Both the position numbers and the translations under genes were made by a program. Under the pieces are notes generated by a model, which was not told where the DNA came from, made no database searches, and worked only from the letters and a program-made list of their open reading frames with translations. DNA of 42,631 nucleotides from Candidatus Woesearchaeota archaeon (GTDB lineage: Archaea > Nanobdellota > Nanobdellia > Parvarchaeales > Parvarchaeaceae), in contig CAYOMU010000001.1 in NCBI GenBank assembly GCA_964405205.1, forward strand, positions 1 through 42,631, written 5' to 3'. The first letter of the stretch is position 1; the number at the start of each line of letters is the position of its first letter. This document shows positions 1-33,649 of the stretch, one piece after another.

Positions 1-56
1 AATACACATTGTTTGTAAAATTTAAAAATAGATTTAAAATAAATTTATATTTCAAA

Positions 57-81
57 CGCACACACCTATATTTCTACTGCA
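57..81 (-). repeat. ORB-like box with G/T-rich tail (inverted copy)
   Basis: The reverse complement reads TGCAGTAGAAATATAGGTGTGTGCG. It shares CAGTAGAAAT plus a G-rich extension with the box at 232-257. Confidence 0.55.
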
Positions 82-170
82 AGGTTTATTATTATTAATA
101 ATGAACTTAAGTAAATTTATCTTAATTAGGAATAAATATAAAAATTTTACATGATCATGATCTATTATAA

Positions 171-188
171 TCTCCAGTAGAAATATGG
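171..188 (+). repeat. mini-ORB-like box
   Basis: Sequence is TCTCCAGTAGAAATATGG, with core TCCAGTAGAAAT at 173-184. Confidence 0.55.
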
Positions 189-191
189 TAA

Positions 192-207
192 TCTCCAATA
201 GAAATTC
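192..207 (+). repeat. mini-ORB-like box (one mismatch)
   Basis: Sequence is TCTCCAATAGAAATTC. The core at 194-205 lies 21 bp after the previous core. Confidence 0.5.
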
Positions 208-231
208 AGTTATATACTTATTATTATATAA

Positions 232-257
232 TTCCAGTAGAAATGGAGGGGTGGGTG
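232..257 (+). repeat. ORB-like box with G-string
   Basis: Sequence is TTCCAGTAGAAATGGAGGGGTGGGTG. This closely resembles the TCCAGTGGAAA dyad plus GGGG tail of described archaeal origin recognition boxes. Confidence 0.6.
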
Positions 258-285
258 TTTTTATTTTTATGATGATGAAATAATA

Positions 286-8202: not shown

Positions 8203-8691
8203 ATGGAAACTTATGTTTTGATGAATAAACCTAGATATAATAGTTTTAAAAATGCATCAAAGATACGTGAGGAGTTTGAAATGCGCGGCATAAAAATAGA
8301 AGACGAAGGTGACGGCTCTATAAGAATTATTGGAGAAGATGCGTATGTTGCAACTCAAGCAGCCGAGGTTTTAAGCGCTTTTAATCGTGGATTTAGTGAG
8401 GAAGATTCTCTTCTGCTTTTTAATGAAAATTATGAATTTTTATCAATCGACATAAGAGATTACGCTAATTCTAAGAATAGACAGATTCAGTTAAAAGGTA
8501 GAGTTATTGGAAAAGAAGGCAAAATTAAGGAGCAAATAGAAGCCAGAACAAATACAAAAATTAGTGTTTTTGGAAAGACTGTAAGCATAATTGGTGAATA
8601 TGAAAATGTAGATAGAGCAAGTAGAATAATAGGTGCAATACTAGAAGGAAAGCAGTTTTCAACAGCATTCAAATTACTAACTTATGGTTGA
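8203..8691 (+). CDS. KH-domain RNA-binding protein (Dim2/Pno1-like)
   Basis: GRVIGKEGKIKEQIEARTN is a KH GxxG loop, and a second KH-like half lies N-terminal. Confidence 0.75.
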   Translation: METYVLMNKPRYNSFKNASKIREEFEMRGIKIEDEGDGSIRIIGEDAYVATQAAEVLSAFNRGFSEEDSLLLFNENYEFLSIDIRDYANSKNRQIQLKGRVIGKEGKIKEQIEARTNTKISVFGKTVSIIGEYENVDRASRIIGAILEGKQFSTAFKLLTYG

Positions 8692-10519
8692 AGATAACAT
8701 TACAGATATTGCCGAGGAGCTTGCAAAAGGACAGAAGAGCATAAGTATTACTGAGTTCTTTGAAAAAAATAGGCACTTGCTTGGATTTGAAAACAAGCAA
8801 AAAGCTTTACTAACTTGCGTAAAAGAGGCCCTAGATAATGCATTAGATGCGTGTGAAGAACAAGCATACGCGCAACTAAAAAGAGGAATGAAGGTTGATT
8901 TACCAGAGATTAAAGTAGAGGTTAAACAAGTTAGTGAAGACTATGAGGTTTTAGACAATGATACTGTAATTGGGGAACTTTCTGTCTATGATAAAGAAGT
9001 TGTATTTAAGTTTAAAGGAAAAACCCTTTCAGCAAAGAAAAGTACAAATATAAAATTCACTCATGAGGATAACGAAATAAACGTATCTTTGGCAGAGGAC
9101 AAAATTGTTGTTACTTTAAATAATAAACAAGTGCAATTAAAGAAGAAAAGTCCTAGATTTAGGATTTCAGTTGCAGACAATGGCCCAGGAATTGTTGAAA
9201 CTCAAATTCCGTATATATTTGGTAAAATGCTTTATGGTAGTAAATTTCACAGGATGAAACAATCAAGAGGTCAGCAAGGTATTGGTATTCATGCAGCAGT
9301 TCTTTATGGACAACTAACAACAGGAAAACCAGTAGTGGTTACTTCAAAAACTTCTTCAAAAGAAAAAGCAATTAAGATGGCAATAATGATTGATATCGTT
9401 AAAAACGAGCCGATTGTGATTAGCAAGGAAGAAACTGAATATGAATATCCTCATGGTACGAAAGTTGAACTTGAGGTTGAAGGAAATTATGTTCTTGGAG
9501 AGCACAGCGTGGATGAATACATAAGAAGAACAGCTATAGTAAATCCTCACGCAACAATTATATATTTCAGCCCTGAAGGTAAAGAATACAAGTATCAGAG
9601 AGTATCCACAGTTCTTCCTCCTGAGCCAATAGAAATTAAACCTCATCCTCAAGGACTAGAGTTAGGTACATTTATGAGAATATTAAAAGATGCTCAAGAA
9701 AGAACGATAGTTTCTGCCTTAGAAAATGAGTTTTCTAGAGTGAGTAGAAGTATAGCAGAAGAAGTGGTAAATAGCGTAGGAATAGATCCAAAAACAAAAC
9801 CTGGTGAGCTTACTAGAGAGCAATATGATTCTCTTTTAAGGGCATTGCAATCTGTGGATTTGCTTAGGCCGCCAACAGATTGCCTTTCTCCAATTGGTGC
9901 AGAGTATATAGAAAGAAGTTTAAAATCTGAATACAACCCAGAGTTTGTATTCGCAGTAACAAGAAAGCCTGAAGTATATAGAGGTATTCCATTTCTTATA
10001 GAAGCGGCTGTTGCTTATGGTGGTAACATAAAATCTGAAAAAGCGTCTTTGTTAAGATTTGCTAACAAAATACCTTTACTACTAGATGCTTCATCATGCG
10101 CTATAACAGCTACTTTTCTTTCCATTGATTTTAGTAGATATGGCATAAAAACTGATGGAAAAACCCCGCTTGGGCCTTTTGTTTTTCTAGTTCATATTGC
10201 AAGCGTTTGGGTTCCTTATACTAGTGAAGGAAAGACGGCGATTGCAAAATATCCAGTGATAATGGAGGAAATTAAGTTAGCATTACAAGAAGTTCTTAGA
10301 GAGGTTTCTAAGTATTTGAGTAAGCAGACAAGAAAAAGGCTTTTAGAAGAAAAACTCAGTTTATTTGATAAATATTCATTAGAGCTTGCAGATTCATTAT
10401 CAAAATTAACAGGAAAAGATCGAGAATATGTTGAGAAAAAGATTAAAGATTTATTAAATACAAGAAGAGAAGAAATTAAATCTAATATATTAAATGAAAA
10501 TGGAACACAAAGCAATTAG
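8684..10519 (+). CDS. top6B: DNA topoisomerase VI subunit B
   Basis: Bergerat-fold motifs LDNALDA, DNGPGI and SRGQQGIGIHAA are present. Length is 611 aa, and top6A follows immediately. Confidence 0.93.
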   Translation: MVEDNITDIAEELAKGQKSISITEFFEKNRHLLGFENKQKALLTCVKEALDNALDACEEQAYAQLKRGMKVDLPEIKVEVKQVSEDYEVLDNDTVIGELSVYDKEVVFKFKGKTLSAKKSTNIKFTHEDNEINVSLAEDKIVVTLNNKQVQLKKKSPRFRISVADNGPGIVETQIPYIFGKMLYGSKFHRMKQSRGQQGIGIHAAVLYGQLTTGKPVVVTSKTSSKEKAIKMAIMIDIVKNEPIVISKEETEYEYPHGTKVELEVEGNYVLGEHSVDEYIRRTAIVNPHATIIYFSPEGKEYKYQRVSTVLPPEPIEIKPHPQGLELGTFMRILKDAQERTIVSALENEFSRVSRSIAEEVVNSVGIDPKTKPGELTREQYDSLLRALQSVDLLRPPTDCLSPIGAEYIERSLKSEYNPEFVFAVTRKPEVYRGIPFLIEAAVAYGGNIKSEKASLLRFANKIPLLLDASSCAITATFLSIDFSRYGIKTDGKTPLGPFVFLVHIASVWVPYTSEGKTAIAKYPVIMEEIKLALQEVLREVSKYLSKQTRKRLLEEKLSLFDKYSLELADSLSKLTGKDREYVEKKIKDLLNTRREEIKSNILNENGTQSN

Positions 10520-11618
10520 TGAGGAAGATGTAAAAAAGCAAAAGGAAGAAACAATTAAAGAATTAGAAAAGATAGGCGAATCTTTACTTTCACAAATAGA
10601 GAAAAAAGAAAATCCTTACTTAGAAATTCCTATTAGAAGACTTTCTAACGTTAAATACAATGAAGAAAAAAGGATATTAGAATTAGGTGAAGCTTTAGCT
10701 AAAAGATATTTCCTTGATGTGGGAGAAGTAAGAAAGTTCGTACAAACTACATCCATTGCAGCATTAGCTAAGCAGCTTATTGAAGAGAAAACTCATGCAG
10801 GATTGAGAGATGTGTTCTATATGCTAAAGAGGACAATTCCAGGTACATCAATCGACCTCGCATATGAACAAGAAGAGACGGATAAGGCAATAGAAGATCT
10901 CGAGCTAATTACTGATTTAACAAGAGAGCAATTGAATATAAATGCAGATAAACGCGGAGTTGTTGCTGGCGAGGTTATAATAGATGATCACGGTGATTTA
11001 ATAGATTGGTCTAAAATGGGGAGTGGTGGCTGGGCAATTCCAAGCAATACAGAGGAAATAGTATTTAAGAAAGTAAGCGCAGATTTTGTTCTTGTAATTG
11101 AGAAAGATGATCTTTGGGAAAGATTAAATGAAGACAGAGTGTGGAAAAAACTTCATTGTTTAATTTTATCAACTAAGGGACAAGCAACTAGAGGAACTAG
11201 AAGATTGTTACAAAGACTAAACAAAGAATTTGGTTTACCAGTTTATGTCTTAACCGATTTTGATCCGTGGGGAATTTATATTTATTCAGTAATTAAATTT
11301 GGTTCTATAAATTTAGCTCACGCTTCTGAGAAGTTAGCATTGCCAGAAGTGAAATTTGTAGGAATGCGTTATGATGACATTCAGAAATATAATCTTAAAA
11401 AACATCTTATAAAGTTTAAAGATGTTGACTTTAAGAGGATTCAACAAGTCAAAGAATATGAGTGGTTCAAGAAAAACAAAGCATGGCAAGAAGAACTTAA
11501 TAAAATGGAATCTATTGCAGCAAAAGTAGAGTTAAACGCATTAGCTTCTAATGGAATTAGATTTATTTCAGAGAAATATATTCCTGATAAAATAAAGGAA
11601 AAGGACTTTTTAGATTAA
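10494..11618 (+). CDS. top6A: DNA topoisomerase VI subunit A (Spo11 family)
   Basis: It has the Toprim motif LTDFDPWGIYIY and a GLRDVFY region. It overlaps top6B by 26 nt. Confidence 0.93.
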   Translation: MKMEHKAISEEDVKKQKEETIKELEKIGESLLSQIEKKENPYLEIPIRRLSNVKYNEEKRILELGEALAKRYFLDVGEVRKFVQTTSIAALAKQLIEEKTHAGLRDVFYMLKRTIPGTSIDLAYEQEETDKAIEDLELITDLTREQLNINADKRGVVAGEVIIDDHGDLIDWSKMGSGGWAIPSNTEEIVFKKVSADFVLVIEKDDLWERLNEDRVWKKLHCLILSTKGQATRGTRRLLQRLNKEFGLPVYVLTDFDPWGIYIYSVIKFGSINLAHASEKLALPEVKFVGMRYDDIQKYNLKKHLIKFKDVDFKRIQQVKEYEWFKKNKAWQEELNKMESIAAKVELNALASNGIRFISEKYIPDKIKEKDFLD

Positions 11619-11909
11619 ACCAAGTTGTTGTTTTGCACTTTCACTCATTTTGTCTGGAGACCAGGGCGGCTCGAAAGTTATTTCTATTTCTACATCTTTA
11701 GCTCCGGTTTTTTCTTTTACTTTTTGTTTTACATCTTCAACAAAATAGTCTATTATTGGACAAAATGGTGAAGTTAAAGTCATAGTTATAGATACTGAAT
11801 CGTCAGTAGTTTTAATATCATATATTAATCCAAGGTCTACTACATTTATTGGAATCTCAGGATCATAGCAATTCCTTAATGCTTCTATCACCTTGTTTTT
11901 ATCTATCAT
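11610..11909 (-). CDS. DUF59/MIP18-family Fe-S cluster assembly protein (SufT-like)
   Basis: YDPEIPINVVDLGLIY and TLTSPFCP motifs are present; length is 99 aa. Confidence 0.85.
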   Translation of the reverse strand: MIDKNKVIEALRNCYDPEIPINVVDLGLIYDIKTTDDSVSITMTLTSPFCPIIDYFVEDVKQKVKEKTGAKDVEIEITFEPPWSPDKMSESAKQQLGLI

Positions 11910-12721
11910 AATATATTCAGCAATCCTTGAGTTATTAGTTGAATTGGAACTATGAATGCGAGTGCAGGGTATCCTTTTCCTCTTTCTCCAAATAATAAAA
12001 TTATTAGAAGTCCTATAATTGCTGCTATTCCTTCTAAAATTCCAGACAATAGATGACCACTTAATACTTGAGCGCTTACTAATATATTAGGGAAAGCAAT
12101 ATCACCATTTCCTAAAAACAACATATCTCCAAACAAGCCTTTCTTCTTTTTTGCCATTGCAATTATTAAGCCTCCTTTTTCTGGATTATTTTTATATGCT
12201 TTTGCTAAGCTTATCATGTGTTTAGAAATAAACACAGAGATATAATCGTACAGAGCTAATGCTGTGATCAAAAACAATGAACCAAGGATTCCTAAATATA
12301 AAGCGAATGTAACAGCAATAACAACATCTGTTATTATGTTTATGGCGTCAGAATACCACCATCTCTTGATTTTGTTCTCAATGAACAATATTATTCCTGA
12401 GATAATAATAGATGGAATTATACCAACAAAAATATTGATAAAAAGTATAAGAAGCAAAAGTCTAACTATATCAATTACACTCATTGAAATTTTTGATATT
12501 CTTTTCTTTAACAAAAAGATTAAAATTAACGAAAAAACAACAATATAAGCTAAAATAGATACTACGAATATTAGAGAATTAGTTGCTGATAATTGAACTT
12601 TTTGCAAGCTTATTTGTGTTGTAAATACATTTTTAATATACAAGGAAGTAATTATTGTCACTTCTACTGAGATTAAAAACAGCAATATGAGTTTTATAAT
12701 TTTATCTGGTTTGTTCTTCAT
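11906..12721 (-). CDS. Presenilin/signal-peptide-peptidase family (A22) intramembrane aspartyl protease
   Basis: It has LYDYISVF (YD), LGNGDIAFP (GxGD) and YPALAFIVP (PAL) motifs in a polytopic membrane protein. Confidence 0.8.
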   Translation of the reverse strand: MKNKPDKIIKLILLFLISVEVTIITSLYIKNVFTTQISLQKVQLSATNSLIFVVSILAYIVVFSLILIFLLKKRISKISMSVIDIVRLLLLILFINIFVGIIPSIIISGIILFIENKIKRWWYSDAINIITDVVIAVTFALYLGILGSLFLITALALYDYISVFISKHMISLAKAYKNNPEKGGLIIAMAKKKKGLFGDMLFLGNGDIAFPNILVSAQVLSGHLLSGILEGIAAIIGLLIILLFGERGKGYPALAFIVPIQLITQGLLNIL

Positions 12722-13361
12722 TTATTCTATCAAATATCGCTGCAAGAATTAATAATATCATGCGCGGATTACCTTCAGCCTTTTTATATGCAGTTTCTAT
12801 GTCTTTCTCTTGAAAAGGCTCAATTGAATCCGAAGCAACTCTTCTTATTAAGTTAAGCCTATTTATGATTATTTGTTTAATGTCCGCAAATGATAATCCT
12901 TTTAATTCTATTATCTGTATTTTGTTTTCTTGAATACAAGTCACACATTTCTCTATACCTTCTTCTCTGTTTTCAACTAATATCAAGCAAGCATGTTCGC
13001 TCACGACACTTATTAAATTCCTTAATCTGTTTTTTTGAAGTTCTGTAAATCCATCCTCGTTATTTATATCGTCTATAGCAATAATATACTTGTACCTGTT
13101 ATCAAAAGCTAATTCATTTAATCTCTCAAGTGTGGCAGCATTTAATTCGAAGTAAGCAGTTCTAATATTATTTTCTTTTTTGAGTGAGTTTAGTGCATAC
13201 TTGACTAAAGAAGTTTTACCTATTCCTGGGGGCCCTTTAACAACTATAACACCTCCATTTATAAACTTGTTTATGGCTAAATGCAATTCAGCAAGCTCAG
13301 TATCTCTATCTACTATTTGTTCGTGCTCAGAAGGAACTATATATAAAAAAGGGTTTTGCAT
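12702..13361 (-). CDS. Short AAA+/P-loop ATPase, Orc1/Cdc6-like or Arch_ATPase-like core without a C-terminal winged helix
   Basis: Present are DRDTELAEL upstream of Walker A GPPGIGKTS, Walker B IIAIDDIN, and a sensor-2-like AEGNPRMILLIL. Length is only 219 aa. Confidence 0.6.
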   Translation of the reverse strand: MQNPFLYIVPSEHEQIVDRDTELAELHLAINKFINGGVIVVKGPPGIGKTSLVKYALNSLKKENNIRTAYFELNAATLERLNELAFDNRYKYIIAIDDINNEDGFTELQKNRLRNLISVVSEHACLILVENREEGIEKCVTCIQENKIQIIELKGLSFADIKQIIINRLNLIRRVASDSIEPFQEKDIETAYKKAEGNPRMILLILAAIFDRINEEQTR

Positions 13362-13397
13362 AAGATGTTTTATTTTTCACCTATTTAAATTATAATT

Positions 13398-13472
13398 GCG
13401 CCCGTAGTTCAGCCCGGATAGAACGGCCGCTTCCTAAGCGGCATGTCGCAGGTTCAAATCCTGCCGGGCGCA
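13398..13472 (+). tRNA. tRNA-Arg (anticodon CCT)
   Basis: A hand-folded cloverleaf gives acceptor GCGCCCG/CGGGCGC, anticodon loop TTCCTAA (CCT at 13433-13435), T-loop TTCAAAT and discriminator A. No CCA is encoded. Confidence 0.95.
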
Positions 13473-13504
13473 ATTAACATACTAATTTACAAGGTTAATT
13501 ATTT

Positions 13505-13795
13505 ATGTTAAATCTAATTTGTCCAGATAAAGAAAACATAACTAAAGATACAATTAATAAGGCTAAGAAACTAACAAGTTCCGTTAAAGTAGACTTTATA
13601 TCTGCTCGTAACATTTATTTTTCAGTTATTAGCAAAGAAAAGCACAGTGTTATATACTCTTTTTTGAAAGGACAATGGTCCTGTGATTGTAAATATTTTG
13701 CGCTAAATCATAAAATATGCTCTCATATTTTAGCAGTAAATTATAAAATCGCAGAATCAGCTATTTATCGCAGTGATAAGATCAATTATTCCTAA
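13505..13795 (+). CDS. SWIM-type zinc-finger protein
   Basis: WSCDCKYFALNHKICSHILAV matches the CxC-x(n)-CxH SWIM signature; length is 96 aa. Confidence 0.7.
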   Translation: MLNLICPDKENITKDTINKAKKLTSSVKVDFISARNIYFSVISKEKHSVIYSFLKGQWSCDCKYFALNHKICSHILAVNYKIAESAIYRSDKINYS

Positions 13796-13915
13796 AATTA
13801 TCAAAGAATAGCCTAGAGTTCTTTTATTAATATAATTGAATAAATTCAGTACAATACTTATACACAGAAGCAACGTAGATAATATAAATACTGTTTGTTT
13901 AGTTGTTAGTTTCAT
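13757..13915 (-). CDS. Possible 52-aa two-helix membrane peptide (not in ORF track)
   Basis: An ATG-to-TGA ORF reads MKLTTKQTVFILSTLLLCISIVLNLFNYINKRTLGYSLIILGIIDLITAINS. It fills most of the 154-nt gap but overlaps the SWIM gene 3' end by 39 nt. Confidence 0.25.
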   Translation of the reverse strand: MKLTTKQTVFILSTLLLCISIVLNLFNYINKRTLGYSLIILGIIDLITAINS

Positions 13916-13949
13916 TTATTAGTTAATTATTTTGAAATATAATTATATT

Positions 13950-14471
13950 ATGGAGGACTTAGATCAATTAAGGGAGATGATAAAGCATGCTTCAGATGTT
14001 GTATTAGATTTGGCTCAAATTAAAGTGCGTATTTTAGCTATTTCTGGCAAACAAGAATTGAGTCAATTAAATATTTCTTATAATAACGTTCCTTTAGAAA
14101 GTGAGCAAAGCAAAGCTACAAATATAAATATGCCTAATGCAAATATTAGTGCAATAAATATTAATCAATTGCCAACCACAGTAAATTCTACTGAAACAAA
14201 AGTACCTAAACTTAATTTATCTAAAATGAAATCATTACAAGAAACATATTCACAAGTACCTATAGAGTCTGAGACTAAAAATCCACCAGCAAATTCACCT
14301 GAAGGCCTTCTTCATTATGTAATTAGTAAAAGGAAAGTAAGATTATCAGAAGCATCAAAGAGCTTGAATGTGCCAAAAGATGTAGTAGAAAAATGGGCTA
14401 CAGTTTTAAGCGAGGAGGGTTTAATTAAAATAAGTTATCCTTTTTTTGGTGAGCCCACTTTATCTGTATGA
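13950..14471 (+). CDS. Hypothetical protein with C-terminal winged-helix-like domain, coupled to a KaiC-like ATPase
   Basis: The first ATG is at 13950; the 13932 start is a TTG. It has an N-terminal helix, an Asn-rich low-complexity linker, and a C-terminal RLSEASKSLNVPKDVVEKWATVLSEEGLIKISY. It forms an ATGA overlap with the next gene. Confidence 0.5.
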   Translation: MEDLDQLREMIKHASDVVLDLAQIKVRILAISGKQELSQLNISYNNVPLESEQSKATNINMPNANISAININQLPTTVNSTETKVPKLNLSKMKSLQETYSQVPIESETKNPPANSPEGLLHYVISKRKVRLSEASKSLNVPKDVVEKWATVLSEEGLIKISYPFFGEPTLSV

Positions 14472-15154
14472 TAGAGAAGATTAAAACAGGAATAGATGGT
14501 TTGGATGAAATGCTTGATGGAGGAATTCCAAAGGGCTATACGATATTTTTATCGGGAGTTGCAGGTAGTGGTAAAACTACATTTAGTTTGCAGTTTTTAA
14601 GTTATGGTGCAAGACAAAATGAACCAGGTCTTTATATAACTCTAGAAGAAAGTGCAGATCAGATTATTAATGATTATGAAGTATTTGATCCCGATATAAG
14701 GAATATAATAAACTCAGGTAAACTAAAAATAATAGAAATTCCAATTTCTGACTTCGAAACATTTAAGGATACAATATCTAATGAAATCATAGCTGGAGGA
14801 ATTAAACGACTAGTTCTTGACTCCATTTCTTATTTGCAAATTCTATTTACAGATAATTTGTCATTTAGAAAAGCAATAATAGAGCTTTCTAATTTATTGA
14901 AGAGGTCTGGGGTTACTTCAATTCTTATTGGAGAAATGCAATCTGGAAGCAATAGCTTTTCTGTTAGCGGAGTAGAGGAATTTGCAGCAGATGGAGTTAT
15001 AGTTTTATATTCTGTTCAAAAAGAAGAATCATTTATTAGAGCAATTAGAGTAGCGAAAATGCGTGGTACTAAAATATTAACAAAAATGTGCCCCTATGAA
15101 TTTGTTGAAGGAAAAGGTATTGTGGTATATCCTTCAGCCGAGGTATTTACGTAA
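14468..15154 (+). CDS. Single-domain KaiC-like / RecA-superfamily ATPase
   Basis: Present are GIDGLDEMLDGGIPKG, Walker A GVAGSGKTT, YITLEES, Walker B RLVLDSIS and VAKMRGTK. Length is 228 aa. Confidence 0.8.
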   Translation: MIEKIKTGIDGLDEMLDGGIPKGYTIFLSGVAGSGKTTFSLQFLSYGARQNEPGLYITLEESADQIINDYEVFDPDIRNIINSGKLKIIEIPISDFETFKDTISNEIIAGGIKRLVLDSISYLQILFTDNLSFRKAIIELSNLLKRSGVTSILIGEMQSGSNSFSVSGVEEFAADGVIVLYSVQKEESFIRAIRVAKMRGTKILTKMCPYEFVEGKGIVVYPSAEVFT

Positions 15155-15161
15155 ATAAGTT

Positions 15162-16118
15162 ATGGAAGATTTATGGGTCGATAAGTACAGACCTTCTTCC
15201 TTTGAGGAAGTAGTAGGTCAAGAAGAAGCAGTTAAGAAATTGGCCGCAATGGCTGCTAGTGGCAACGTTCAGCATTTATTATTTTCTGGCCCCCCAGGAG
15301 TAGGTAAAACGACATGTGCGTTAATATTAGCTCATACTGTTTTAGGTGACACTTGGTCGGACAATTTTATGCAATTAAATGCTTCTGATGATAGAAAACT
15401 ACAGGTAATTCAAACAAGGGTTAAGGAATTTGCAAGATCTAAACCAATAAACGCAAAATTTAAGATATTGTTTTTAGATGAAGCAGATTCATTAACTACT
15501 GAGGCTCAGCAAGCATTAAGAAGAATGATGGAGGATTATGGAGAAAATTGTAGATTTATTTTTAGTGTTAATTATCAATCAGAAATTATTGAGCCTATAC
15601 AATCCAGATGCGTTATAGTTAGATTTCAAGCGCTAGATAAAAAAGATGTATTTAAACTTATTGATAGAATTGCTAACGCTGAGAATCTTTCTATAAGCGA
15701 AGATGCAAAAGATGCGCTATTTGCAATTACTAGAGGAGACCTTAGAAGACTAATAAATCTGCTTCAATCTCTAGCAATGGTTAATAACAATATAAGTGCT
15801 GAAATGGTTTATAAAAGTGCGACTAGAATAAGTATAGAAAAAATAGATGGAATTATAAAGTTTGCTTTAAATGGGAATTTTATTGAGGCCAAAAAAATTA
15901 TTGATGAATTATTAGATCTAGGAATTTCTCCTTATGAAATTCTTAATGCTTTATATAACCGAATTTCGTATGATGAATCTGTTCCAATAAAAAAGAAAAT
16001 TAAACTAATAGAAAAAATAGCAGACGCTGATTATAGAATTATAAATGGGGCAACGCCTTTAATACAACTCGAGGCCTTAATTGCTTTTCTGAGTGAAGAT
16101 GATAGAAATTCCGAGTGA
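15162..16118 (+). CDS. rfcS: Replication factor C small subunit
   Basis: Motifs WVDKYRP, GPPGVGKTT, LFLDEADSLT and QSRC (the SRC motif) are present. Confidence 0.95.
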   Translation: MEDLWVDKYRPSSFEEVVGQEEAVKKLAAMAASGNVQHLLFSGPPGVGKTTCALILAHTVLGDTWSDNFMQLNASDDRKLQVIQTRVKEFARSKPINAKFKILFLDEADSLTTEAQQALRRMMEDYGENCRFIFSVNYQSEIIEPIQSRCVIVRFQALDKKDVFKLIDRIANAENLSISEDAKDALFAITRGDLRRLINLLQSLAMVNNNISAEMVYKSATRISIEKIDGIIKFALNGNFIEAKKIIDELLDLGISPYEILNALYNRISYDESVPIKKKIKLIEKIADADYRIINGATPLIQLEALIAFLSEDDRNSE

Positions 16119-17049
16119 ACTAGATTATTTTATAGACAATGATGTATTAAGGCAAGTACTTCCTAATTTAAAGCCTAATTCCAAGTTTATATTTTCAGGA
16201 CCGTCAGGTGTTGGTAAGACGTTTCTAGCAAAGTGTATTGCAAACAAGCTTGGCTATTCTTTTGTGAGCATTGATTTACTATTATTAACATTTCAAAACT
16301 CTGATCAATTATTTAATTTTATTGCAAGAACTTCTCTCTCTAAGAATTTGCAAGGACAAGCTAATCTTTTATTAATTACAAATTCTGAAAAACTACTGGA
16401 TATAAATCCCTCTTTATTTCTCAAGATAAAGGATTTGCCAGGTATTATAATTTTTGAAACTAATTCAGATTTTCCTTTTCTTTCAAAATATAAGAGATAT
16501 GTTGAAAACTATGTGATTGTTAAATTTAATAAATTACCTTATTCAGCTTTAAAGCGAATAATGTCCATTCTAATAAAATTAAATAACGTTTATGTTCCTC
16601 AAGATGTGCAGGAGAGCATTATTAATAATGCACATGGAAATGCACAAAGTTTAATTAATGATTTAAAATCGTTTCTATTAACGCATTCATATGTTTTTTC
16701 AGAGAGAAATTCAGAAGATAGTCTGTTTATGAGTATAAAGAATCTTTTAAGCGGAAGGCAAAGTAATGTATTTTTAGCATCTGAAGACGAAATAAAGGTA
16801 TTTTTAATGTGGCTTGCGGAAGAAGTGCCTTTAAATCTCAATAAGGAAAAACTAAAATTAGCCTTCGATATTTTAAGTCAATCCGATATTTTTCTAAATA
16901 AAATTCAGAAACAAAATTGGTTTCTTTTAAAGTATATAAATAGTTTGATTAATGAGATATCTGAAATTTCCAATGTCTATAATCCAAAAATGACCTATAA
17001 GATCAAATATTCTCATTATCTAAGTACTTATTCTAAAACAAATCCTTGA
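16099..17049 (+). CDS. rfcL: Divergent, short replication factor C large subunit
   Basis: It has Walker A GPSGVGKT and AHGNAQSLINDLK (compare GDLRxAxNxLQ). FLMWLAEEVP and SQSDIFLNK align to the RFC-L collar region as I recall it from Pyrococcus RFC-L. It sits directly after rfcS. The first ATG is at 16099; 16093 is a GTG. Confidence 0.65.
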   Translation: MIEIPSELDYFIDNDVLRQVLPNLKPNSKFIFSGPSGVGKTFLAKCIANKLGYSFVSIDLLLLTFQNSDQLFNFIARTSLSKNLQGQANLLLITNSEKLLDINPSLFLKIKDLPGIIIFETNSDFPFLSKYKRYVENYVIVKFNKLPYSALKRIMSILIKLNNVYVPQDVQESIINNAHGNAQSLINDLKSFLLTHSYVFSERNSEDSLFMSIKNLLSGRQSNVFLASEDEIKVFLMWLAEEVPLNLNKEKLKLAFDILSQSDIFLNKIQKQNWFLLKYINSLINEISEISNVYNPKMTYKIKYSHYLSTYSKTNP

Positions 17050-26288: not shown

Positions 26289-26690
26289 TTAATATAAAAG
26301 TTCAGCTACACCGCCTATTAGAATTAATACTATGCCAGCGATATATCCTCCTACAGATGCAGGAATTGTAAACATTCCTAAAATCATAGATATTACTGCA
26401 TACGCTTTTTTCTTGTACTTGGCTGTTAATGCCCCAAAAATCAATCCTAGTATGCTTGCTGCCAGACCAATGTAATTTAAGAGCAGCAGGTAATTTATCA
26501 AGCCTGGTGTTACATTCATGTATTTTAATGCATTTATTATAGCAGGAAAACTAGATAGAGAAATTATTATTAGTAGAGAAGCAGCCAAAGTTATTGCGAA
26601 TCCGACCTCTATTAAAATAGGTGGCCAGATCTTTCTTTCTTTTTCTTCTTTCCTTAATATTTTCCTGCTTTTACTTCTTTTCCTTTCCAC
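26289..26690 (-). CDS. Four-helix membrane protein with basic N-terminus, unknown
   Basis: This is a 133-codon hydrophobic ORF. The start codon at 26690 is GTG and no in-frame ATG occurs before residue 58. Confidence 0.5.
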   Translation of the reverse strand: MERKRSKSRKILRKEEKERKIWPPILIEVGFAITLAASLLIIISLSSFPAIINALKYMNVTPGLINYLLLLNYIGLAASILGLIFGALTAKYKKKAYAVISMILGMFTIPASVGGYIAGIVLILIGGVAELLY

Positions 26691-26696
26691 AAAATT

Positions 26697-26704
26697 TTTA
26701 AAAA
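26697..26704 (+). promoter_or_regulatory. Candidate TATA box for rps17e (leaderless geometry)
   Basis: TTTAAAAA is centred about 26-27 nt upstream of the ATG at 26727. Confidence 0.3.
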
Positions 26705-26726
26705 TATACAGATATAAATCTTTCCC

Positions 26727-26974: not shown

Positions 26975-29278
26975 ATGGGAGAAGAAAAACCAGAAATTGT
27001 TTTACGTGTTGCCGAGGCATTTTCAGATGATAGAGATCAAGGAAAAGTTAGAATTCCTGGCGATGCTCTTAAGAAATTAGGCTTAAAAGCAGGAGATTAC
27101 GTAGAAATTCAAGGTCAAAGAACTACCGTTGCAATTGCAGATCGTGGTTATATTAGCGATGCTGGGCTCAATATAATCCGAATGGATTTTATTACTAGAA
27201 AGAATGCTGGCGTAAGTGTAGGAGAAAACGTAACGATTAGGCCTGCAGAAGTAGAAGAAGCAGAGTCAGTAGTTCTTGCTCCAGTATCAAATATTTCAGT
27301 AAAAGGCCCTACAAATTGGCTTAACAGGCTATTAGATAGAAGACCTGTAACCAAAGGAGATGAAGTTTCTGTAAATGGCGGTTTAGGTACTGGTTTAGGC
27401 GGAATCGATGAGCTTTTTGAAGATATATTTATGGGAATGAATATAGCTCCGTTTTTCGGTGAGCCACTTAGATTTGTTGTTGTTTCAACAACTCCTAAAG
27501 GTTATGTTTTCATTTCAGATAACACTGAAATTACGATAAGCGCTCAAAGTAAGCAAGCTCTAGAGGAGGCTAAAATTAGACAAGTAAGCTATGAGGACAT
27601 AGGCGGTTTAGACGATGCTATTGCAAAAATAAGAGAAATGGTTGAAATTCCATTAAGACATCCTGAGATATTTATGAGATTAGGAATTGAGCCCCCTAAA
27701 GGAGTATTGTTATATGGTCCTCCAGGTACAGGTAAAACTTTGTTAGCTAGAGCAGTAGCTTCTGAATCAGGGGCCTCATTTTATGCAATTAATGGCCCAG
27801 AGATAATGAGTAAATGGGTAGGAGATGCAGAAAAGAGATTAAGGGAAATATTTGACAATGCAGAGAAAAATGCTCCTGCAATTGTTTTTATTGATGAAAT
27901 TGATGCTATTGCGCCTAAAAGAGAAGAAAGTGTAGGCGAAGTAGAGCACAGAGTAGTCTCTCAACTATTAACTTTAATGGATGGATTAAAAGGAAGAGGT
28001 AATGTTATTGTCATTGCAGCAACGAACAGACCAAATGCAATAGATCCTGCACTTAGAAGACCTGGGAGATTTGATAGAGAAATTTATATAGGGGTGCCAG
28101 ATGAACGTGGAAGATTACAAATACTTAAAATTCATACTAGAAGAGTACCATTAGACAAAAGTGTAGATCTGGAGTATTTAGCTAGAATTACTCATGGTTT
28201 TGTTGGTGCAGATATAGAAGCCCTCGTTAAAGAAGCTGCAATGAATGCTATAAGAAGGAATATGAATGAACTTAATCTTTCAGAAAGCAGCAAGATACCA
28301 AGATCAGTTTTAGAAAAGTTGTACGTTACTTTAGATGACTTTCAAGAAGCACTAAGATTTGTTAGACCAAGTGCACTTAGAGAGGTTCTTATTGAAAGAC
28401 CAAACGTTAAGTGGGAAGATATTGGTGGCCTAGAGGAAGTAAAACAAAGACTAATAGAAGCAATAGAGTGGCCAATTAAATATCCCGAAGCTTTCAAGAA
28501 AGCAGGAATTTCACCACCAAAAGGAATTCTTCTTTTTGGTCCTCCAGGTACAGGTAAAACTTTGTTAGCTAGAGCAGTAGCAGGTGAAACTGAATCTAAC
28601 TTTATCTTAGTAAAAGGCGCAGAGATAATGAGTAAATGGGTAGGAGAAAGCGAGAAAAATGTTAGAGAAATATTTGATAGAGCAAAAAGAGTGGCCCCTT
28701 GTGTTATTTTCTTCGATGAGATTGATGCTATTGCCTCTACTAGAGCAATAGCAGAAGAAAATAGAGTAGATGCACAAGTAGTTGATACTTTATTAAGCGA
28801 ATTAGATGGATTAGAGCCGCTTAAAAACGTTACAGTGCTTGCAGCTACAAACAGAATAGACATACTTGATCCTGCTATATTAAGAGCAGGAAGATTTGAC
28901 GAGATTATTTTTGTTCCTCCACCAGATACAAAAGAAAGAGAGGCAATATTTAGAGTATATATAAATAAGATGCCAGTCGAAAATAAAGAGGAATTAATAA
29001 AAGATTTAGCTGCAAGAACAGAAGGTTTTGTTGGTGCAGATATAGAGCGATTAACTAAAGAAGCTGCATTAATTGCACTTAGAAAAATTAGAGATAATTT
29101 AGATAAGATAGCTAAGAATGAGATGGAGCTTAAAATAACAAAGGAAGATTTTGATAGAGCGTTGGAAATAGTACACCCAAGCTTAACTAAATCACAAGTC
29201 GAGGAGTATTATGCGCAAGCTGCTAAGTTTTATTCACGTGGAAAATCTATAGCAACAGAATCTAAATATTTTGGATGA
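26975..29278 (+). CDS. cdc48: Cdc48/VCP/p97-type double-ring AAA+ ATPase
   Basis: It has an N-domain and two AAA modules, each with [15 protein letters not shown] Walker A, DEIDA Walker B and an SRH. Length is 767 aa. Confidence 0.97.
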
Positions 29279-29934
29279 ATTCAGACGAAATTTACGAATT
29301 AGTATTACAAGGTCAATTGGAGTGGGAGTCGCTAATTTCTACAATTATTAGAGAAGAGGGCATCGATCCACTTAATATTGATATATCACTTTTAACTGCT
29401 AGGTTTATAGATATTACTAATAAGCTTGCAAAAGCAGATTTCATTTATTATGGAAAATTTATATATGTAGCTGCAATTCTTTTAAGACTTAAGTCTGAGC
29501 GTTTATTAGATATGCTCACGAGCAAAAATTCTTTTATTAAAAGGAAAAATCAATACATTAAAAGTACGCCTTTTTCAATTATTTTGTCTCCTAAAATGTA
29601 TTTGATTAGAAAAAGGAGAATTACATTGTCAGATCTAATCTTTTACATTCGAAATTCTTTGAATTTTATTAAAAGTCAACAACAATCATTTCAATTTAAT
29701 TTTAAATTAAATGAAATGAAGATAGCTCAAACTATAATAAATGTACAAAGCATGTTAATCGAGATATTCAAAAAATCGGATACAATCATGTTTTCTGAAC
29801 TTGTAAAGGGAAAAGAGTGGCAGGATATAGCCAGAACATTTATTTCTCTTTTATTTTTATTTCACGACGAAAAGATTAGTTTGTATCAAAATGAACCAAT
29901 GGCTGATATTGTAATCAAGAATATTGCACTATGA
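29275..29934 (+). CDS. scpA: Segregation and condensation protein A (kleisin)
   Basis: IDPLNIDISLLTARFI and AAILLRLKSERLL are typical of the ScpA N-terminus. It forms ATGA overlaps with cdc48 and scpB. Confidence 0.75.
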   Translation: MNSDEIYELVLQGQLEWESLISTIIREEGIDPLNIDISLLTARFIDITNKLAKADFIYYGKFIYVAAILLRLKSERLLDMLTSKNSFIKRKNQYIKSTPFSIILSPKMYLIRKRRITLSDLIFYIRNSLNFIKSQQQSFQFNFKLNEMKIAQTIINVQSMLIEIFKKSDTIMFSELVKGKEWQDIARTFISLLFLFHDEKISLYQNEPMADIVIKNIAL

Positions 29935-30446
29935 AAGAAGCTTTACCTAAGATAGAAGCCTTAATATTTTCTTCACCTAATGGCATTAGTATAGAGGAAT
30001 TAGGAGCAAAATTAAAAATGCCCACTGAACTTGTTAATCATTATTTGAATCAATTAGTTAAAAGATACTCCGATCCTCAATTTGGTATAGAAATTGTTAA
30101 AGAAAACAATGTTGCAAAGATGAAAATTAAAATTCAATACGCAGACCTAATATCAGGTAAACCAGAACTGAGCAAGGGTATTTTAATGACATTGAGTTTA
30201 ATAGCAGTAGAGAGTCCAATCAAGCTAGCAGATTTAGTTAAAAAACGTGGTACAGTTGCTAGGATGCACGTTAAAAAACTAAGGGAGATGGGATTAATAT
30301 CAGAATCTGTTGATAAAGGCAAAAAAATAATTAAATTATCTCAAGGGTTCTTTCAATATTTTGATCTTTCAAAAGAAGAATTAGAATCACTAAAGAAAGA
30401 ATTTCAATTAAAAGAATCTGAAAATAATCAAACTGCTAAACAATAG
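29931..30446 (+). CDS. scpB: Segregation and condensation protein B
   Basis: IEALIFSSPNGISIEEL and LSKGILMTLSLIAVESPIKLADL indicate tandem winged helices. Confidence 0.8.
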   Translation: MKEALPKIEALIFSSPNGISIEELGAKLKMPTELVNHYLNQLVKRYSDPQFGIEIVKENNVAKMKIKIQYADLISGKPELSKGILMTLSLIAVESPIKLADLVKKRGTVARMHVKKLREMGLISESVDKGKKIIKLSQGFFQYFDLSKEELESLKKEFQLKESENNQTAKQ

Positions 30447-30945
30447 GCGTTTTTCTTTTTATCTCAATAATTTTTGGTTTTTCTTCTTTTTGTTCTTGTA
30501 CTTTCTCTTCTGATTTTGTTTCTTTTGAGTATCCTTTTATCTCATCTAGTTTTGCAATGATCAATTTTCTTATCTCTTCTAGGTTTTGTCCTTGTTCTCG
30601 TTTAAATAAATAACTATTGTTATCGTTTTCATATCTAGGTAGTAAAGTAATAATTGCATGAGGAATTATTGATCCTTTATTAATTTCTTTCGAGTAGATG
30701 ATATCAACATCTGTTGCATTTAATGCGTTTTTAATTGCAAATCCAAGAGCTCTTGCGATTGATAATAGATGTAAATATTCTTCTTGTGGAATTTCGTATA
30801 GTGTAGAATAATGCTTCTTCGTAAAAACAAGGGTATTTCCTGGAGATGCAGGATTAATGTCTAAAACAGCAATTACTATTGGATCTTCATAAATGACGTA
30901 AGATTCTGTTTTTTTGTTTGCTATGTTGCAAAATATACATTCCAT
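30436..30945 (-). CDS. HIT-superfamily protein with degenerate histidine triad and a Lys/Glu-rich tail
   Basis: It has CIFCNI, VIYEDPIVIAVLDINPASPGN and LLPRY framework motifs. The triad position reads HAIITLL instead of HxHxHxx. Confidence 0.75.
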   Translation of the reverse strand: MECIFCNIANKKTESYVIYEDPIVIAVLDINPASPGNTLVFTKKHYSTLYEIPQEEYLHLLSIARALGFAIKNALNATDVDIIYSKEINKGSIIPHAIITLLPRYENDNNSYLFKREQGQNLEEIRKLIIAKLDEIKGYSKETKSEEKVQEQKEEKPKIIEIKRKTPIV

Positions 30946-30978
30946 AAAGACTTAAATTATGTCATATAAAATATTAAT

Positions 30979-31197
30979 ATGGCTAAAGCAAGACTAAAGT
31001 ACAACGAGGAGCATAAATTACTTCTAGACAGCGTTTTAGGGCTATTTTACTTAGCATTAGCCTCTACGTTTATTGTAGTAGGCGCAGTAAGTATTTTCTA
31101 TCAAGTATTTTCGAAAGCACTTGCAGCGGCTTCTACAATAATTTTAGGAGTAGTGATTTACTTTATAGGGCTTGCAATCCTTAGAATAAGGATTTAA
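30979..31197 (+). CDS. Small two-helix membrane protein, unknown
   Basis: This is a 72-aa hydrophobic ORF in its own intergenic slot. Confidence 0.4.
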   Translation: MAKARLKYNEEHKLLLDSVLGLFYLALASTFIVVGAVSIFYQVFSKALAAASTIILGVVIYFIGLAILRIRI

Positions 31198-31206
31198 TTT
31201 TTTATT

Positions 31207-31584
31207 TTATATTTTTACTAAATTTATTATTCCTTCTTGCCCCGGTCTATTTACAATTTTAGCCTTTCCTTGATCAGTTTCCACAATTGCTCCTTTAGTA
31301 AGTATACCTCTTCTTGCAAATTCTCTATTAGCAGGATTTTCTACAACTTTAATTATTTTAACTTTTTTCGCAGTTTTAGTGCTATAATCAAATAGTATCC
31401 CTTCATTCGCTGAGAGCAATCTTATTTTTTTATTGTTTCCTCTACCTCTAATTATTTTTCGTTTTACTTCTCCCAGTACAGTAGGATTTGCTGGTGCAAC
31501 AGTTTCATATCTTCTTGTATCTCGCCATTTACCTTTCTTTCCGCCGCTTCTTTTTCTTCCATCGTTACCTGTTTTGATTCCCAT
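31207..31584 (-). CDS. rps8e: 30S ribosomal protein S8e
   Basis: The start is taken at the internal Met. MGIKTGNDGRKRSGGKKGKWRDTRRYE and the C-terminal AKIVNRPGQEGIINLV match the eS8 pattern. Confidence 0.9.
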   Translation of the reverse strand: MGIKTGNDGRKRSGGKKGKWRDTRRYETVAPANPTVLGEVKRKIIRGRGNNKKIRLLSANEGILFDYSTKTAKKVKIIKVVENPANREFARRGILTKGAIVETDQGKAKIVNRPGQEGIINLVKI

Positions 31585-31617
31585 AAATATTAATTTTATA
31601 TTCAACCTATATTTAAA

Positions 31618-32058
31618 ATGATAAAGGTTGAATTTCCAGAGATTGCAGGTCAAAATTGTCCACCAATATATACTTGTGACGGAGAAAATATTTCTCCTGC
31701 AGTAAAATGGACTAAAGTAAATGGAGCAGTTGCTTATGCATTAATAGTAGAAGATCCAGATGCACCTTCAGGGTTGTTCGTGCATTGGATTATATATAAC
31801 ATTAAGCAGAACTTTTTGCCAAAGGAATTTCCAAGAGAATCACAATTAGCTTATCAAGGAATTAATGATTTTAAGCGCCAAGGCTATGATGGTCCTTGTC
31901 CACCAAGAGGGCATGGCCCACATCATTATCATTTTAAAGTGTTTGCGCTTTCTTCTGAATTAGACGAAGGAATTAAGAATAGAGAGGAGTTAATAAAAGC
32001 AATGCAGGGCAAAATACTCGATCAAGGCGAGGCAATATTAATATATCAAAGAAAATAA
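31618..32058 (+). CDS. PEBP / YbhB-YbcL family (Raf-kinase-inhibitor-like) protein
   Basis: DPDAPSGLFVHW and GPCPPRGHGPHHYHF motifs are present. Confidence 0.9.
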   Translation: MIKVEFPEIAGQNCPPIYTCDGENISPAVKWTKVNGAVAYALIVEDPDAPSGLFVHWIIYNIKQNFLPKEFPRESQLAYQGINDFKRQGYDGPCPPRGHGPHHYHFKVFALSSELDEGIKNREELIKAMQGKILDQGEAILIYQRK

Positions 32059-32067
32059 ATTGTAAAA

Positions 32068-32184
32068 ATGAAAAGAAGTTCAAAGAAATGGAAGAAATGG
32101 CACATTAATAGATGGAAAACTAGAAAGCAAAGAATTAGAGAAAGAAAAAGAAAGAGAAAATTAATGAAAATGAGGACTGCATAA
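32068..32184 (+). CDS. rpl41e: Probable ribosomal protein L41e (38 aa, not in ORF track)
   Basis: The ATG..TAA ORF reads MKRSSKKWKKWHINRWKTRKQRIRERKRKRKLMKMRTA. It is extremely basic and rich in Trp, Arg and Lys, like archaeal eL41. It fills the gap between the PEBP gene and tRNA-Leu. Confidence 0.55.
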   Translation: MKRSSKKWKKWHINRWKTRKQRIRERKRKRKLMKMRTA

Positions 32185-32186
32185 AT

Positions 32187-32309
32187 GCAGGGGTAGCGAA
32201 GCCCGGTCAAACGCGCAGGACTTAAGATCAAAGATCTTAAGTTATGAGGAATCGATGATTGGAAATCCTGTGGCTTAGGCCTTCGTGGGTTCAAATCCCA
32301 CCCCCTGCA
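32187..32309 (+). tRNA. tRNA-Leu (anticodon TAA) with a 38-nt intron at the canonical 37/38 position
   Basis: This is a type II tRNA with acceptor GCAGGGG/CCCCTGC, A73 and a long variable arm TGGCTTAGGCCTTC. The anticodon stem CAGGA (32216-20) / TCCTG (32266-70) is interrupted by intron 32227-32264. The exon loop is CTTAAG+A. Confidence 0.85.
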
Positions 32310-32327
32310 CATTGAATCGAAAATGTA

Positions 32328-32335
32328 TTTAAATA
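32328..32335 (+). promoter_or_regulatory. Candidate TATA box for the 32354 membrane-protein gene
   Basis: TTTAAATA is centred about 22-23 nt upstream of the ATG, giving near-leaderless geometry. Confidence 0.25.
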
Positions 32336-32353
32336 ACTCTGTGCTTATATTTT

Positions 32354-32653
32354 ATGGCTTGGGACAAGGAGAAGAATGCAAGCAAAATTTGGATATTTTT
32401 GGGCTTCCTTGGAATAGGTTACTTAATTGCATTAATATATAGTTTGATAAGTAATCATGATGAAGATAGATTATATGGTATACTTTTCATTCTAGGATTC
32501 CTAGGATCTATAATAATTTACATATTAGAGAAAGACAAAGATAGGTATCTTTCAAGCTTAGCTTTATACCTATTGATTGGAACAATTATTGATATTGTTG
32601 TTGGTATAATTTTGTTTTCTCTAGGCGTTTTTATGCCTCATATTGTGGTTTAA
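32354..32653 (+). CDS. Small polytopic membrane protein, unknown
   Basis: It is 99 aa with three hydrophobic helices. Confidence 0.45.
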   Translation: MAWDKEKNASKIWIFLGFLGIGYLIALIYSLISNHDEDRLYGILFILGFLGSIIIYILEKDKDRYLSSLALYLLIGTIIDIVVGIILFSLGVFMPHIVV

Positions 32654-32682
32654 AGTAATATATCACATTCCAAGTAATTTAA

Positions 32683-33297
32683 TTAAGTAAAATGCATTAA
32701 AGTAGGTTGAGATGTATACCATTTTAATCTTACATACTTTCTTAACTCCTTTATTTTACCTTCTTTAATTATTTTTTTGATAAATTCTTTTGTTTTTGGA
32801 TCAGAAGGATAACCAGAACCGAAATCTCCTATTTCTTTTCTTATTTTTTCTATTTCTTCTTCTCTAGTTTTTTTAGCAATAATTGATGCTCCTCCAACTT
32901 GAATATAATCTCTATCTGCAAAATTTCTTGCAATAACTTTCTTTTTTGTCATCTCAATTAATTTATCTTCTATTCTTTTTTCGTTTGAAGAAGGAGCATC
33001 TACTATTGCTTCGTCGCAATTAGCTTCTTTTATAAATTTTGCAAAAACATTTAATTCTAGTTCATTGATATTATTTTTATCTAATTCCTCGGGTTCAATT
33101 TTTTCAATAAAATATTCAAAGTTGTTTTGCAACCAATTTCCAATTTCAAATATTTTCTTAATTGAAAGCAATTTAGAATCCTTCACACCTTTTTCTTCTA
33201 GTAATTTTAAATCCTCATCTTTTACTATAAGTCCTGCAACCACTAAGGGTCCAATTACTGGGCCTCTACCAGCTTCATCAATACCTATGTATTTCAT
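32683..33297 (-). CDS. rnhB: Ribonuclease HII
   Basis: IGIDEAGRGPVIGPLVVAG (the DEAGRG catalytic motif) and a later DSK motif are present. The start is taken at Met preceding KYIGIDE. Confidence 0.9.
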   Translation of the reverse strand: MKYIGIDEAGRGPVIGPLVVAGLIVKDEDLKLLEEKGVKDSKLLSIKKIFEIGNWLQNNFEYFIEKIEPEELDKNNINELELNVFAKFIKEANCDEAIVDAPSSNEKRIEDKLIEMTKKKVIARNFADRDYIQVGGASIIAKKTREEEIEKIRKEIGDFGSGYPSDPKTKEFIKKIIKEGKIKELRKYVRLKWYTSQPTLMHFT

Positions 33298-33556
33298 CTG
33301 CTCTGAACATTGCATGTCCAAAATGCACAAGTAAATCAATTCCAAATTTGCTTACACCTATCGGAATATCACAAGCACCATAAGCTGAGCCGCCCCAAAT
33401 GTATACTTCTGCCTCTGTGTTTTCTTTAATGTACTTTGCAATTTCTAATGCTTTAGGCTTCAATCCAAAAGGAAGCTGAATTAAAACTCTTTTGTAGTTC
33501 TTTTCTTTAATTTTATTTACTATTTTTTCTAATTCTAAATCAAAGTCCTCTTTCAT
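33278..33556 (-). pseudogene. dph2: N-terminal fragment (about 85 of about 340 residues) of diphthamide synthase subunit Dph2
   Basis: KRVLIQLPFGLKPKALEIAKYIKENTEAEVYIWGGSAYGACDIPIGVSKFGIDLLVHFGHAMF matches the Dph1/Dph2 N-terminal domain, including the first Fe-S Cys (YGAC). The ORF then stops inside the rnhB start region. Confidence 0.75.
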
Positions 33557-33612: not shown

Positions 33613-33649
33613 TTAAATATTTACATGTAAATAATCAATATTAACCTGA

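Follow-up and report, generated by a model that had tools for sequence, protein, structure and literature searches.

The intergenic region at the left edge of the window

The window, that is, the whole stretch of 42,631 bp analysed here, derives from the chromosome of a Parvarchaeales (DPANN) archaeon. Its genes are archaeal and chromosomal and include TruD, aEF-2, L13/S9, Topo VI B and A, the RFC small and large subunits, LeuRS and ProRS, together with Cdc48, ScpA/ScpB, RNase HII, split RNA polymerase B and A subunits and S7. No Orc1/Cdc6 was found to be encoded inside the 42.6-kb window. A 219-aa AAA+ ATPase at 12702–13361 on the minus strand (Pfam ATPase_2 / AAA_16) reaches 27 bits on the orc1/cdc6 model, for which the cut-off is 181; we rejected it as a cryptic second initiator, as the similarity is confined to the P-loop level and the protein is devoid of the lid and winged-helix domains. 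No ORBs occur near this gene.

Positions 1–285 are non-coding. The gene that follows, at 286–639 on the plus strand, encodes a small protein that has counterparts in relatives (L001 7619–7972; L003 3400–3786 and L004 9339–9677, both on the minus strand). These proteins are 112–128 aa long, carry a hydrophobic segment at the N-terminus, share six invariant cysteines and have no match in Pfam or NCBIfam.

A motif search of the 42.6-kb window locates exact matches to the 12-mer TCCAGTAGAAAT at 173–184 and 233–244, both on the plus strand. One-mismatch versions lie at 194–205 (TCCAATAGAAAT, plus strand) and, inverted, at 70–81 (TGCAGTAGAAAT, minus strand). The initial annotation had counted four copies of this box: all four are present, but only two are exact, and while the positions 173, 194 and 233 and the inverted copy hold, the latter ends at 81 and not at 80. 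With at most one mismatch, the whole 42,631-bp window contains five matches where 0.26 would be expected, a count that none of 100 dinucleotide-preserving shuffles attained. Four of these five lie inside 70–244, i.e., within 175 bp, and the fifth, at 40853, falls within a coding region. Within these 42.6 kb, the 12-mer is not scattered over promoters. Allowing two mismatches raises the count to 13 (6.8 expected) and the signal is lost in the background, so it is the cluster, rather than the 12-mer word, that constitutes the feature.

The two outer boxes form the arms of a 29-nt inverted repeat (54–82 / 232–260, 79% complementary), with their cores directed inward and their G-rich tails outward, distal to the spacer; this agrees with the earlier description of outermost copies facing away from each other. 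The claim that both carry G-rich tails stands for the right box, in which GGAGGGGTGGGTG at 245–257 is a true G-string, but not quite for the left one, whose tail GGTGTGTGCG (the reverse complement of 57–66) is an alternating GT run lacking a run of G. The left core faces the AT-rich spacer with its tail distal, and likewise the right core, whose G-string abuts the promoter of the 286–639 gene. As read from the sequence, the tails abut AT-rich promoter regions on both sides. The features of the region are as follows.

1–53, minus strand: presumed orc1/cdc6 promoter, the cdc6-proximal AT-rich part (gapless alignment of 18–82 with relatives)
54–82, minus strand: left full ORB, TTGCAGTAGAAAT-ATA-GGTGTGTGCGTTT on the minus strand; core 70–81, GT tail 57–66; inverted-repeat arm
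83–172, no strand: candidate duplex unwinding element (DUE), AT-rich, 15% GC, lowest stability
173–184, plus strand: mini-ORB 1, TCCAGTAGAAAT, exact match
194–205, plus strand: mini-ORB 2, TCCAATAGAAAT, one mismatch; TCC/GCA...GAAAT kept in relatives
206–231, no strand: short AT-rich second spacer, variable in length and sequence, 8% invariant columns, indels
232–260, plus strand: right full ORB, TTCCAGTAGAAAT-GGA-GGGGTGGGTGTTT; core 233–244 exact, G-string 245–257; inverted-repeat arm
258–285, plus strand: putative TATA-like AT-rich promoter region of the gene at 286–639, outside the origin core (sequence reading)

The spacer between the inverted box and the first direct box (82–172) is 91 bp long with 15.4% GC, consistent with the low-GC spacer noted initially, and just 0.04% of 90-bp windows reach this AT-richness. 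Among all 90-mers of the 42,631-bp window, stability is lowest at 85–174, with a nearest-neighbour dG of -88.4 versus a mean of -107, and this segment ties with 33555–33644 for the lowest GC. The latter segment, the runner-up in AT-richness and instability (14.4% GC), lies upstream of the RNA polymerase operon, between divergent genes; no ORB-like boxes were found in it, and it is probably just a promoter region. The sign of the GC skew follows gene orientation (coding strand) both in the window, which holds only one side of the site, and in the 21-kb locus of a relative (L004). The skew thus carries no origin signal, and we rejected it as a test for an origin.

The initial annotation called this region the only long non-coding stretch of the window, which is essentially right: the remaining sizeable intergenic gaps carry tRNAs, and about 440 nt at 26289–26726, downstream of two tRNAs, hold a single doubtful ORF (133 aa, GTG start, without a family match). 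No Rfam match was obtained in 26289–26726, even at E up to 1, and this segment could be non-coding or contain an unrecognised RNA. Within 1–400, no tRNA and no Rfam family were found; the best Rfam score, SNORD27 at 22 bits (E = 0.24), is noise, and a non-coding RNA was accordingly rejected for this interval. Elsewhere, Rfam detects a 123-nt tRNA at 32187–32309 on the plus strand (48.7 bits) that was missed by ARAGORN and presumably contains an intron. The ORF at 32046–32312 on the minus strand is probably spurious because this tRNA overlaps it.

Syntenic relatives and the initiator gene

Relatives of the locus belong to three independent lineages: L001, a JGI contig (with the Logan contig L002), L003, and L004–L006. 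L001 and L002 were reached via TruD, which is 50% identical to that of the window. The window's TruD is itself 100% identical to a protein of a 57,435-bp NCBI contig, and the Cdc6 homologues recovered included none from a contig of that length. The Cdc6 of L001 used as a query then led to L003 (61% identity) and to Ca. Rehaiarchaeum fermentans, a member of the Parvarchaeales (DPANN) described in PMC10134863 (L004–L006, 55–56%). The gene order of L004 and L005 mirrors that of the window exactly, with TopoVI-B, KH, two small ORFs, Cob-adenosyltransferase, tRNA-edit, S9, L13, EF-2, a 208-aa ORF, GT2, TruD and the small ORF. Beyond the small ORF, Rehaiarchaeum has a 323-bp intergenic region followed by a divergent 417-aa Cdc6. 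L003 shows the same arrangement across its 5.9 kb, and L001 and L002 share the origin-proximal part only (Cdc6, intergenic region, small ORF and TruD). In every relative the orthologous intergenic region is bordered by a divergent Cdc6 of 415–417 aa, and the small-protein gene always directly adjoins it on the side opposite to cdc6 (window, L001, L003 and L004).

The Cdc6 of the relatives (P0022) scores 361 bits on the NCBIfam TIGR02928 orc1/cdc6 model (cut-off 181). Its best matches are A. pernix ORC1, which binds ORBs (2v1u_A, 1e-77), and S. solfataricus Orc1-1 (2qby_A, 9e-75), with much lower similarity to Orc1-3 (1e-44) and P. aerophilum Cdc6 (2e-19). Judged by these sequence comparisons, it is of the Orc1-1 class. 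In L001, L003 and L004–L006 about 67–68 bp separate the start codon of cdc6 from the left ORB, and positions 18–82 of the window align gaplessly with the region upstream of cdc6 in L001, L003 and L004. Because this spacing is conserved and the alignment is gapless, the cdc6 ATG of the source genome is predicted at the window's left edge, at about position -2 to 0, which would place the gene immediately to the left of the window. Possibly, an ATG at 9–7 on the minus strand serves as an alternative start. The left edge itself is not accounted for by a window cut at gene boundaries, an explanation that we rejected since the right end cuts a gene mid-ORF: a small ORF at 42451–42631 on the plus strand (MDKAAILVTVEPGK...) runs past it.

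We aligned the intergenic regions in the orientation of the window across the four independent lineages, whose flanking proteins are about 50–60% identical. All share a common layout in which an inverted full ORB near cdc6 comes first, then an AT-rich spacer, then direct mini-ORBs, two or three in number, and finally a direct full ORB whose tail reads AGGGGTG(G/T)G. The fraction of invariant columns differs between the elements.

Left ORB core (columns 67–82): 69% invariant
Mini-ORB 1: 71% invariant
Mini-ORB 2: 57% invariant
Right ORB core: 79% invariant
Right G-string: 62% invariant
DUE: 15% invariant, with indels
Spacers: 8–14% invariant
Downstream promoter: 7% invariant

The sequence of the DUE has diverged; what the relatives retain is its AT-richness and its position. 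Positions 18–53 are 33% invariant, with a mean pairwise identity of 58%. The left ORB of the window is weaker than in the relatives, owing to a C-to-G change in the core and to its GT-alternating tail; in the relatives this tail is a true G-string (GGGGTAGG in L003, GGGGGAGG in L004), and the left ORB of L003, TCCAGTGGAAAT-ATA-GGGGTAGG, is a classical dyad. Rehaiarchaeum has an additional mini-ORB in the second spacer, at the equivalent of window positions 206–231. TCC-type boxes in L001–L006 cluster solely in the cdc6 intergenic region.

Mini-ORBs 1 and 2 of the window are 21 bp apart, start to start, and this spacing is exact in the four Parvarchaeales lineages (window 173–205, L001 7503–7535, L003 3833–3865, L004 9775–9828). 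We rejected it as a general archaeal rule, since spacings upstream of cdc6 vary in distant archaea. The initial annotation also pointed to a dyad with TAG instead of TGG, and this variant is seen in the right ORB of all four lineages. Constant in these lineages, it occurs in 19 of 132 ORBs from reference archaea and is therefore a minority form, not a unique one. The clade-specific traits are the exact 21-bp phasing of the mini-ORBs and the TAG dyad variant, to which the window adds a degenerate, GT-type left G-string.

The ORB pattern across Archaea

The right ORB is an exact instance of the pan-archaeal pattern TCCAGTRGAAAYNNAGGGGTG. A search for this pattern in one genome per species, covering 185,579 bacterial and archaeal species, yielded at least 120 exact matches in reference genomes. 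Among the matches listed, 69 of 80 titles bear archaeal names, and many phyla are represented, namely Thermoplasmatota, methanogens, Halobacteria, Thermoproteota, Bathyarchaeia, Thaumarchaeota, Asgard lineages and Woesearchaeota. Of the 120 chunks that carry the matches listed, 57 also encode a Cdc6 homologue according to local tblastn, in 56 of them at no more than 1.5 kb from the match, and many matches to TCCAGTRGAAAYNNAGGGGTG without such a homologue are close to the end of their chunk. Bacterial names account for 11 of the 80 titles among the matches listed, and for six of these 11 the 8-kb chunk with the match also encodes a Cdc6 homologue. The contigs that combine an ORB with an Orc1/Cdc6 homologue (L039, L053, L064, L068 and L077, and also L041) are filed as Lachnospiraceae, Acidoferrum, Eggerthellaceae, Anaerovoracaceae, Omnitrophota and Dormiibacterota, and are probably mis-binned archaeal DNA.

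A metagenome scan with a Cdc6 alignment revealed no closer Parvarchaeales and only distant relatives, with 36–44% identity. The 68 loci of these distant relatives are used here solely as the basis for a general statistic of box position. Boxes of the form T[CT]CANNNGAAA number 106 in the 250 nt upstream of the cdc6 start, versus 1–5 in most other 250-nt bins, and over the 700 nt that precede cdc6 core boxes reach a density of 2.88 per kb, versus 0.21 per kb elsewhere. The genome pattern search and this density upstream of cdc6 therefore identify the window element as a canonical pan-archaeal ORB in its usual place.

The published definition of archaeal ORBs and origins is likewise matched by the window element (PMC4010727, PMC1904270, PMC1868953, PMC12141716, PMC3089459). 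The euryarchaeal ORB consensus is GTTCCAGTGGAAAC-AAA----GGGGG (PMC1868953), and the right ORB agrees with the consensus quoted there at 11 of 14 core positions and in the GGGG. The archaeal-origin architecture proposed in the initial annotation is supported, since the ORB/mini-ORB consensus is matched and inverted full ORBs flank the most easily melted DNA of the window.

One of the closest parallels is found in Pyrococcus. The oriC of P. abyssi contains two long inverted ORBs and 13-bp mini-ORBs with invariant TTCC and GAA cores, and its Cdc6 binds weakly to single mini-ORBs and strongly to full ORBs (PMC1904270). The window resembles P. abyssi and P. furiosus in its two long ORBs arranged as an inverted repeat, its TTCC...GAA mini-ORBs and its AT-rich region (for example, Pyrococcus TTCCAGTGGAACT versus window ATTCCAGTAGAAAT; PMC1904270). 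The Pyrococcus oriC also lies directly upstream of the single cdc6/orc1 gene (PMC1904270), a likeness that extends to the window locus through the loci of its relatives. In contrast, Pyrococcus ORBs measure 34 bp, and the origin region there is larger, contains more mini-ORBs and has another ORB cluster in dp1, whereas the window has full ORBs of about 26–29 bp and two mini-ORBs only, 21 bp apart on one side of the DUE. Its dyad reads TAG, not TGG, and its origin is a candidate proposed from sequence.

In Sulfolobus oriC1, Orc1-1 binds as one monomer per ORB and with defined polarity, the inverted ORB2 and ORB3 flank the DUE and are both needed in vivo, and MCM is recruited to the DUE by ATP-bound Orc1-1 (PMC12141716). 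The positions corresponding to mini-ORBs are protected by the winged-helix domain, and the AAA+ ISM contacts and deforms the adjacent DNA (PMC3089459). As in Sulfolobus oriC1 (ORB3-DUE-ORB2; PMC12141716, PMC3607249) and Aeropyrum pernix oriC1 (ORC1-ORB4, 2V1U), inverted ORBs flank a DUE next to orc1-1, in the case of the window via the orthologous loci. The sizes are comparable, at about 130 bp for the Sulfolobus ORB3-DUE-ORB2 and 207 bp for the ORB-DUE-miniORBs-ORB of the window. Unlike these crenarchaeal origins, the window has no recognisable 'ucm' motif in its DUE (columns 15% invariant), possesses additional phased mini-ORBs and comes from a DPANN lineage.

Haloarchaeal oriC1 (Haloferax volcanii, Haloarcula hispanica; PMC1868953, PMC3936714) shares the mini-ORB core with G-string and the inverted ORBs around a primary DUE, next to orc1 (again via the orthologous loci for the window). 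H. volcanii even has GT stretches after some repeats that resemble the window's left tail. The haloarchaea differ in an extra halophile-specific G-string in their ORBs, in much longer intergenic regions of about 1.4 kb, in GC-rich genomes and in having multiple origins and multiple cdc6 genes.

Proposed origin mechanism and its alternatives

Based on the above data, we propose that 54–260 is very probably the chromosomal replication origin, of oriC1 type, of a Parvarchaeales (DPANN) archaeon. Its architecture, the statistical significance of the box cluster, the conservation, the tie of orthologous loci to orc1/cdc6 and the association of this ORB with cdc6 across Archaea are established. Protein binding and its polarity, MCM loading and firing in vivo are ascribed to 54–260 by analogy. 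The mechanism that we propose for the window locus is the Sulfolobus/winged-helix scheme, transferred by homology.

By analogy with Sulfolobus, Aeropyrum and Pyrococcus, monomers of Orc1/Cdc6 produced from the neighbouring gene would bind each ORB with fixed polarity, the winged-helix domain sitting on the TCCAGTAGAAAT core and the AAA+ initiator-specific motif on the adjacent G-rich tail. Such binding would bend and underwind the DNA. Because the full ORBs (54–82, minus strand; 232–260, plus strand) are inverted with their cores inward, the bound initiators would face each other across the 91-bp, 15% GC element, to which they could then recruit the MCM helicase for bidirectional replication. 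The mini-ORBs at 173–184 and 194–205, spaced by 21 bp (two helical turns) on the far side from cdc6, probably provide cooperative binding of lower affinity. Since the ORB tails abut both divergent promoters, the bound initiator may also exert autoregulation on cdc6 and on the small gene downstream.

The same abutment is what would be expected if genuine Orc1/Cdc6 sites served here only or mainly as an operator for the promoters of cdc6 and the small ORF, or marked a dormant origin, with replication starting elsewhere or by recombination. A point against the assignment as an origin is that some ORB clusters adjacent to cdc6 are inactive or dispensable: T. kodakarensis can replicate its genome in the absence of both cdc6 and oriC (PMC5663688), dormant origins exist in haloarchaea (PMC4595724) and ORB clusters can have titrating or regulatory roles (PMC4010727). 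Other points against it are that no cdc6 of the source genome was seen in the window, which starts about 56 nt to the left of the left ORB, that GC skew gives no origin signal and that the left ORB is weaker here than in the relatives. However, the full layout, with inverted ORBs around the least stable DNA, is conserved across lineages and would be needless for a pure operator. DPANN genomes are also small, and no second ORB cluster was found in the roughly 42 kb of the window and 21 kb of L004 examined. Furthermore, the roles of operator and origin are not mutually exclusive. We therefore consider a purely regulatory or dormant site to be quite unlikely.

It is highly improbable that the repeats are sites of an unrelated transcription factor at divergent promoters, with a coincidental likeness to ORBs. 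The divergent promoter setting and the phasing of the 12-mers by two helical turns are indeed typical of operator arrays, but the 21-nt box with its G-string is identical to the pan-archaeal ORB, which is cdc6-linked in 56 of the 120 matches listed and in many phyla, and none of the window's other promoter regions carries the motif, not even 33555–33644 with its equal AT-richness. The notion that the 29-nt inverted repeats are the ends of a MITE, or of an origin cassette captured from an extrachromosomal element, is hardly conceivable: a 29-nt inverted repeat does flank 149 bp of AT-rich DNA and captured elements are a known source of additional archaeal origins (PMC4010727), but the element is single-copy in the window, occupies an orthologous position in relatives (flanking proteins 50–60% identical) within conserved housekeeping synteny, and has canonical ORBs as arms and an associated initiator of the widely conserved Orc1-1 class.

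The locus is the probable replication origin of an uncultured Parvarchaeales lineage; the literature searched contained no paper describing a Parvarchaeales origin or ORBs in DPANN. DPANN genomes are nonetheless reported to be routinely oriented at Orc1/Cdc6 (10.64898/2026.05.13.725050). The locus could be used for orienting and closing genomes, for peak-to-trough estimates of growth rate from metagenome coverage and as a candidate ARS for genetic tools. It also shows the classic ORB–Orc1-1 system kept almost unchanged in a reduced DPANN genome. As an origin, the element is well supported yet ordinary, a canonical, textbook-like case that opens no new question. It is conceivable, albeit unlikely, that Parvarchaeales origins represent a distinct asymmetric sub-type, in which strictly 21-bp-phased mini-ORBs found only on the side of the DUE that is remote from cdc6, together with a right ORB that always has the broken (TAG) dyad, would nucleate a one-sided, helically in-phase Orc1 oligomer. 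If so, this oligomer could bias helicase loading or couple initiation to the transcription of the adjacent conserved gene for the Cys-rich membrane protein.

Lastly, several replication and chromosome genes of the window lie within about 35 kb of the proposed origin, namely Topo VI B/A, RFC small and large, ScpA/ScpB and RNase HII (8684–17049 and 29275–33345). In Rehaiarchaeum, the PolD small subunit (L004 20868–21254) is located about 10 kb beyond cdc6, on the other side. These origin-proximal genes recall the replication gene clusters found near the origin in Thermococcales.
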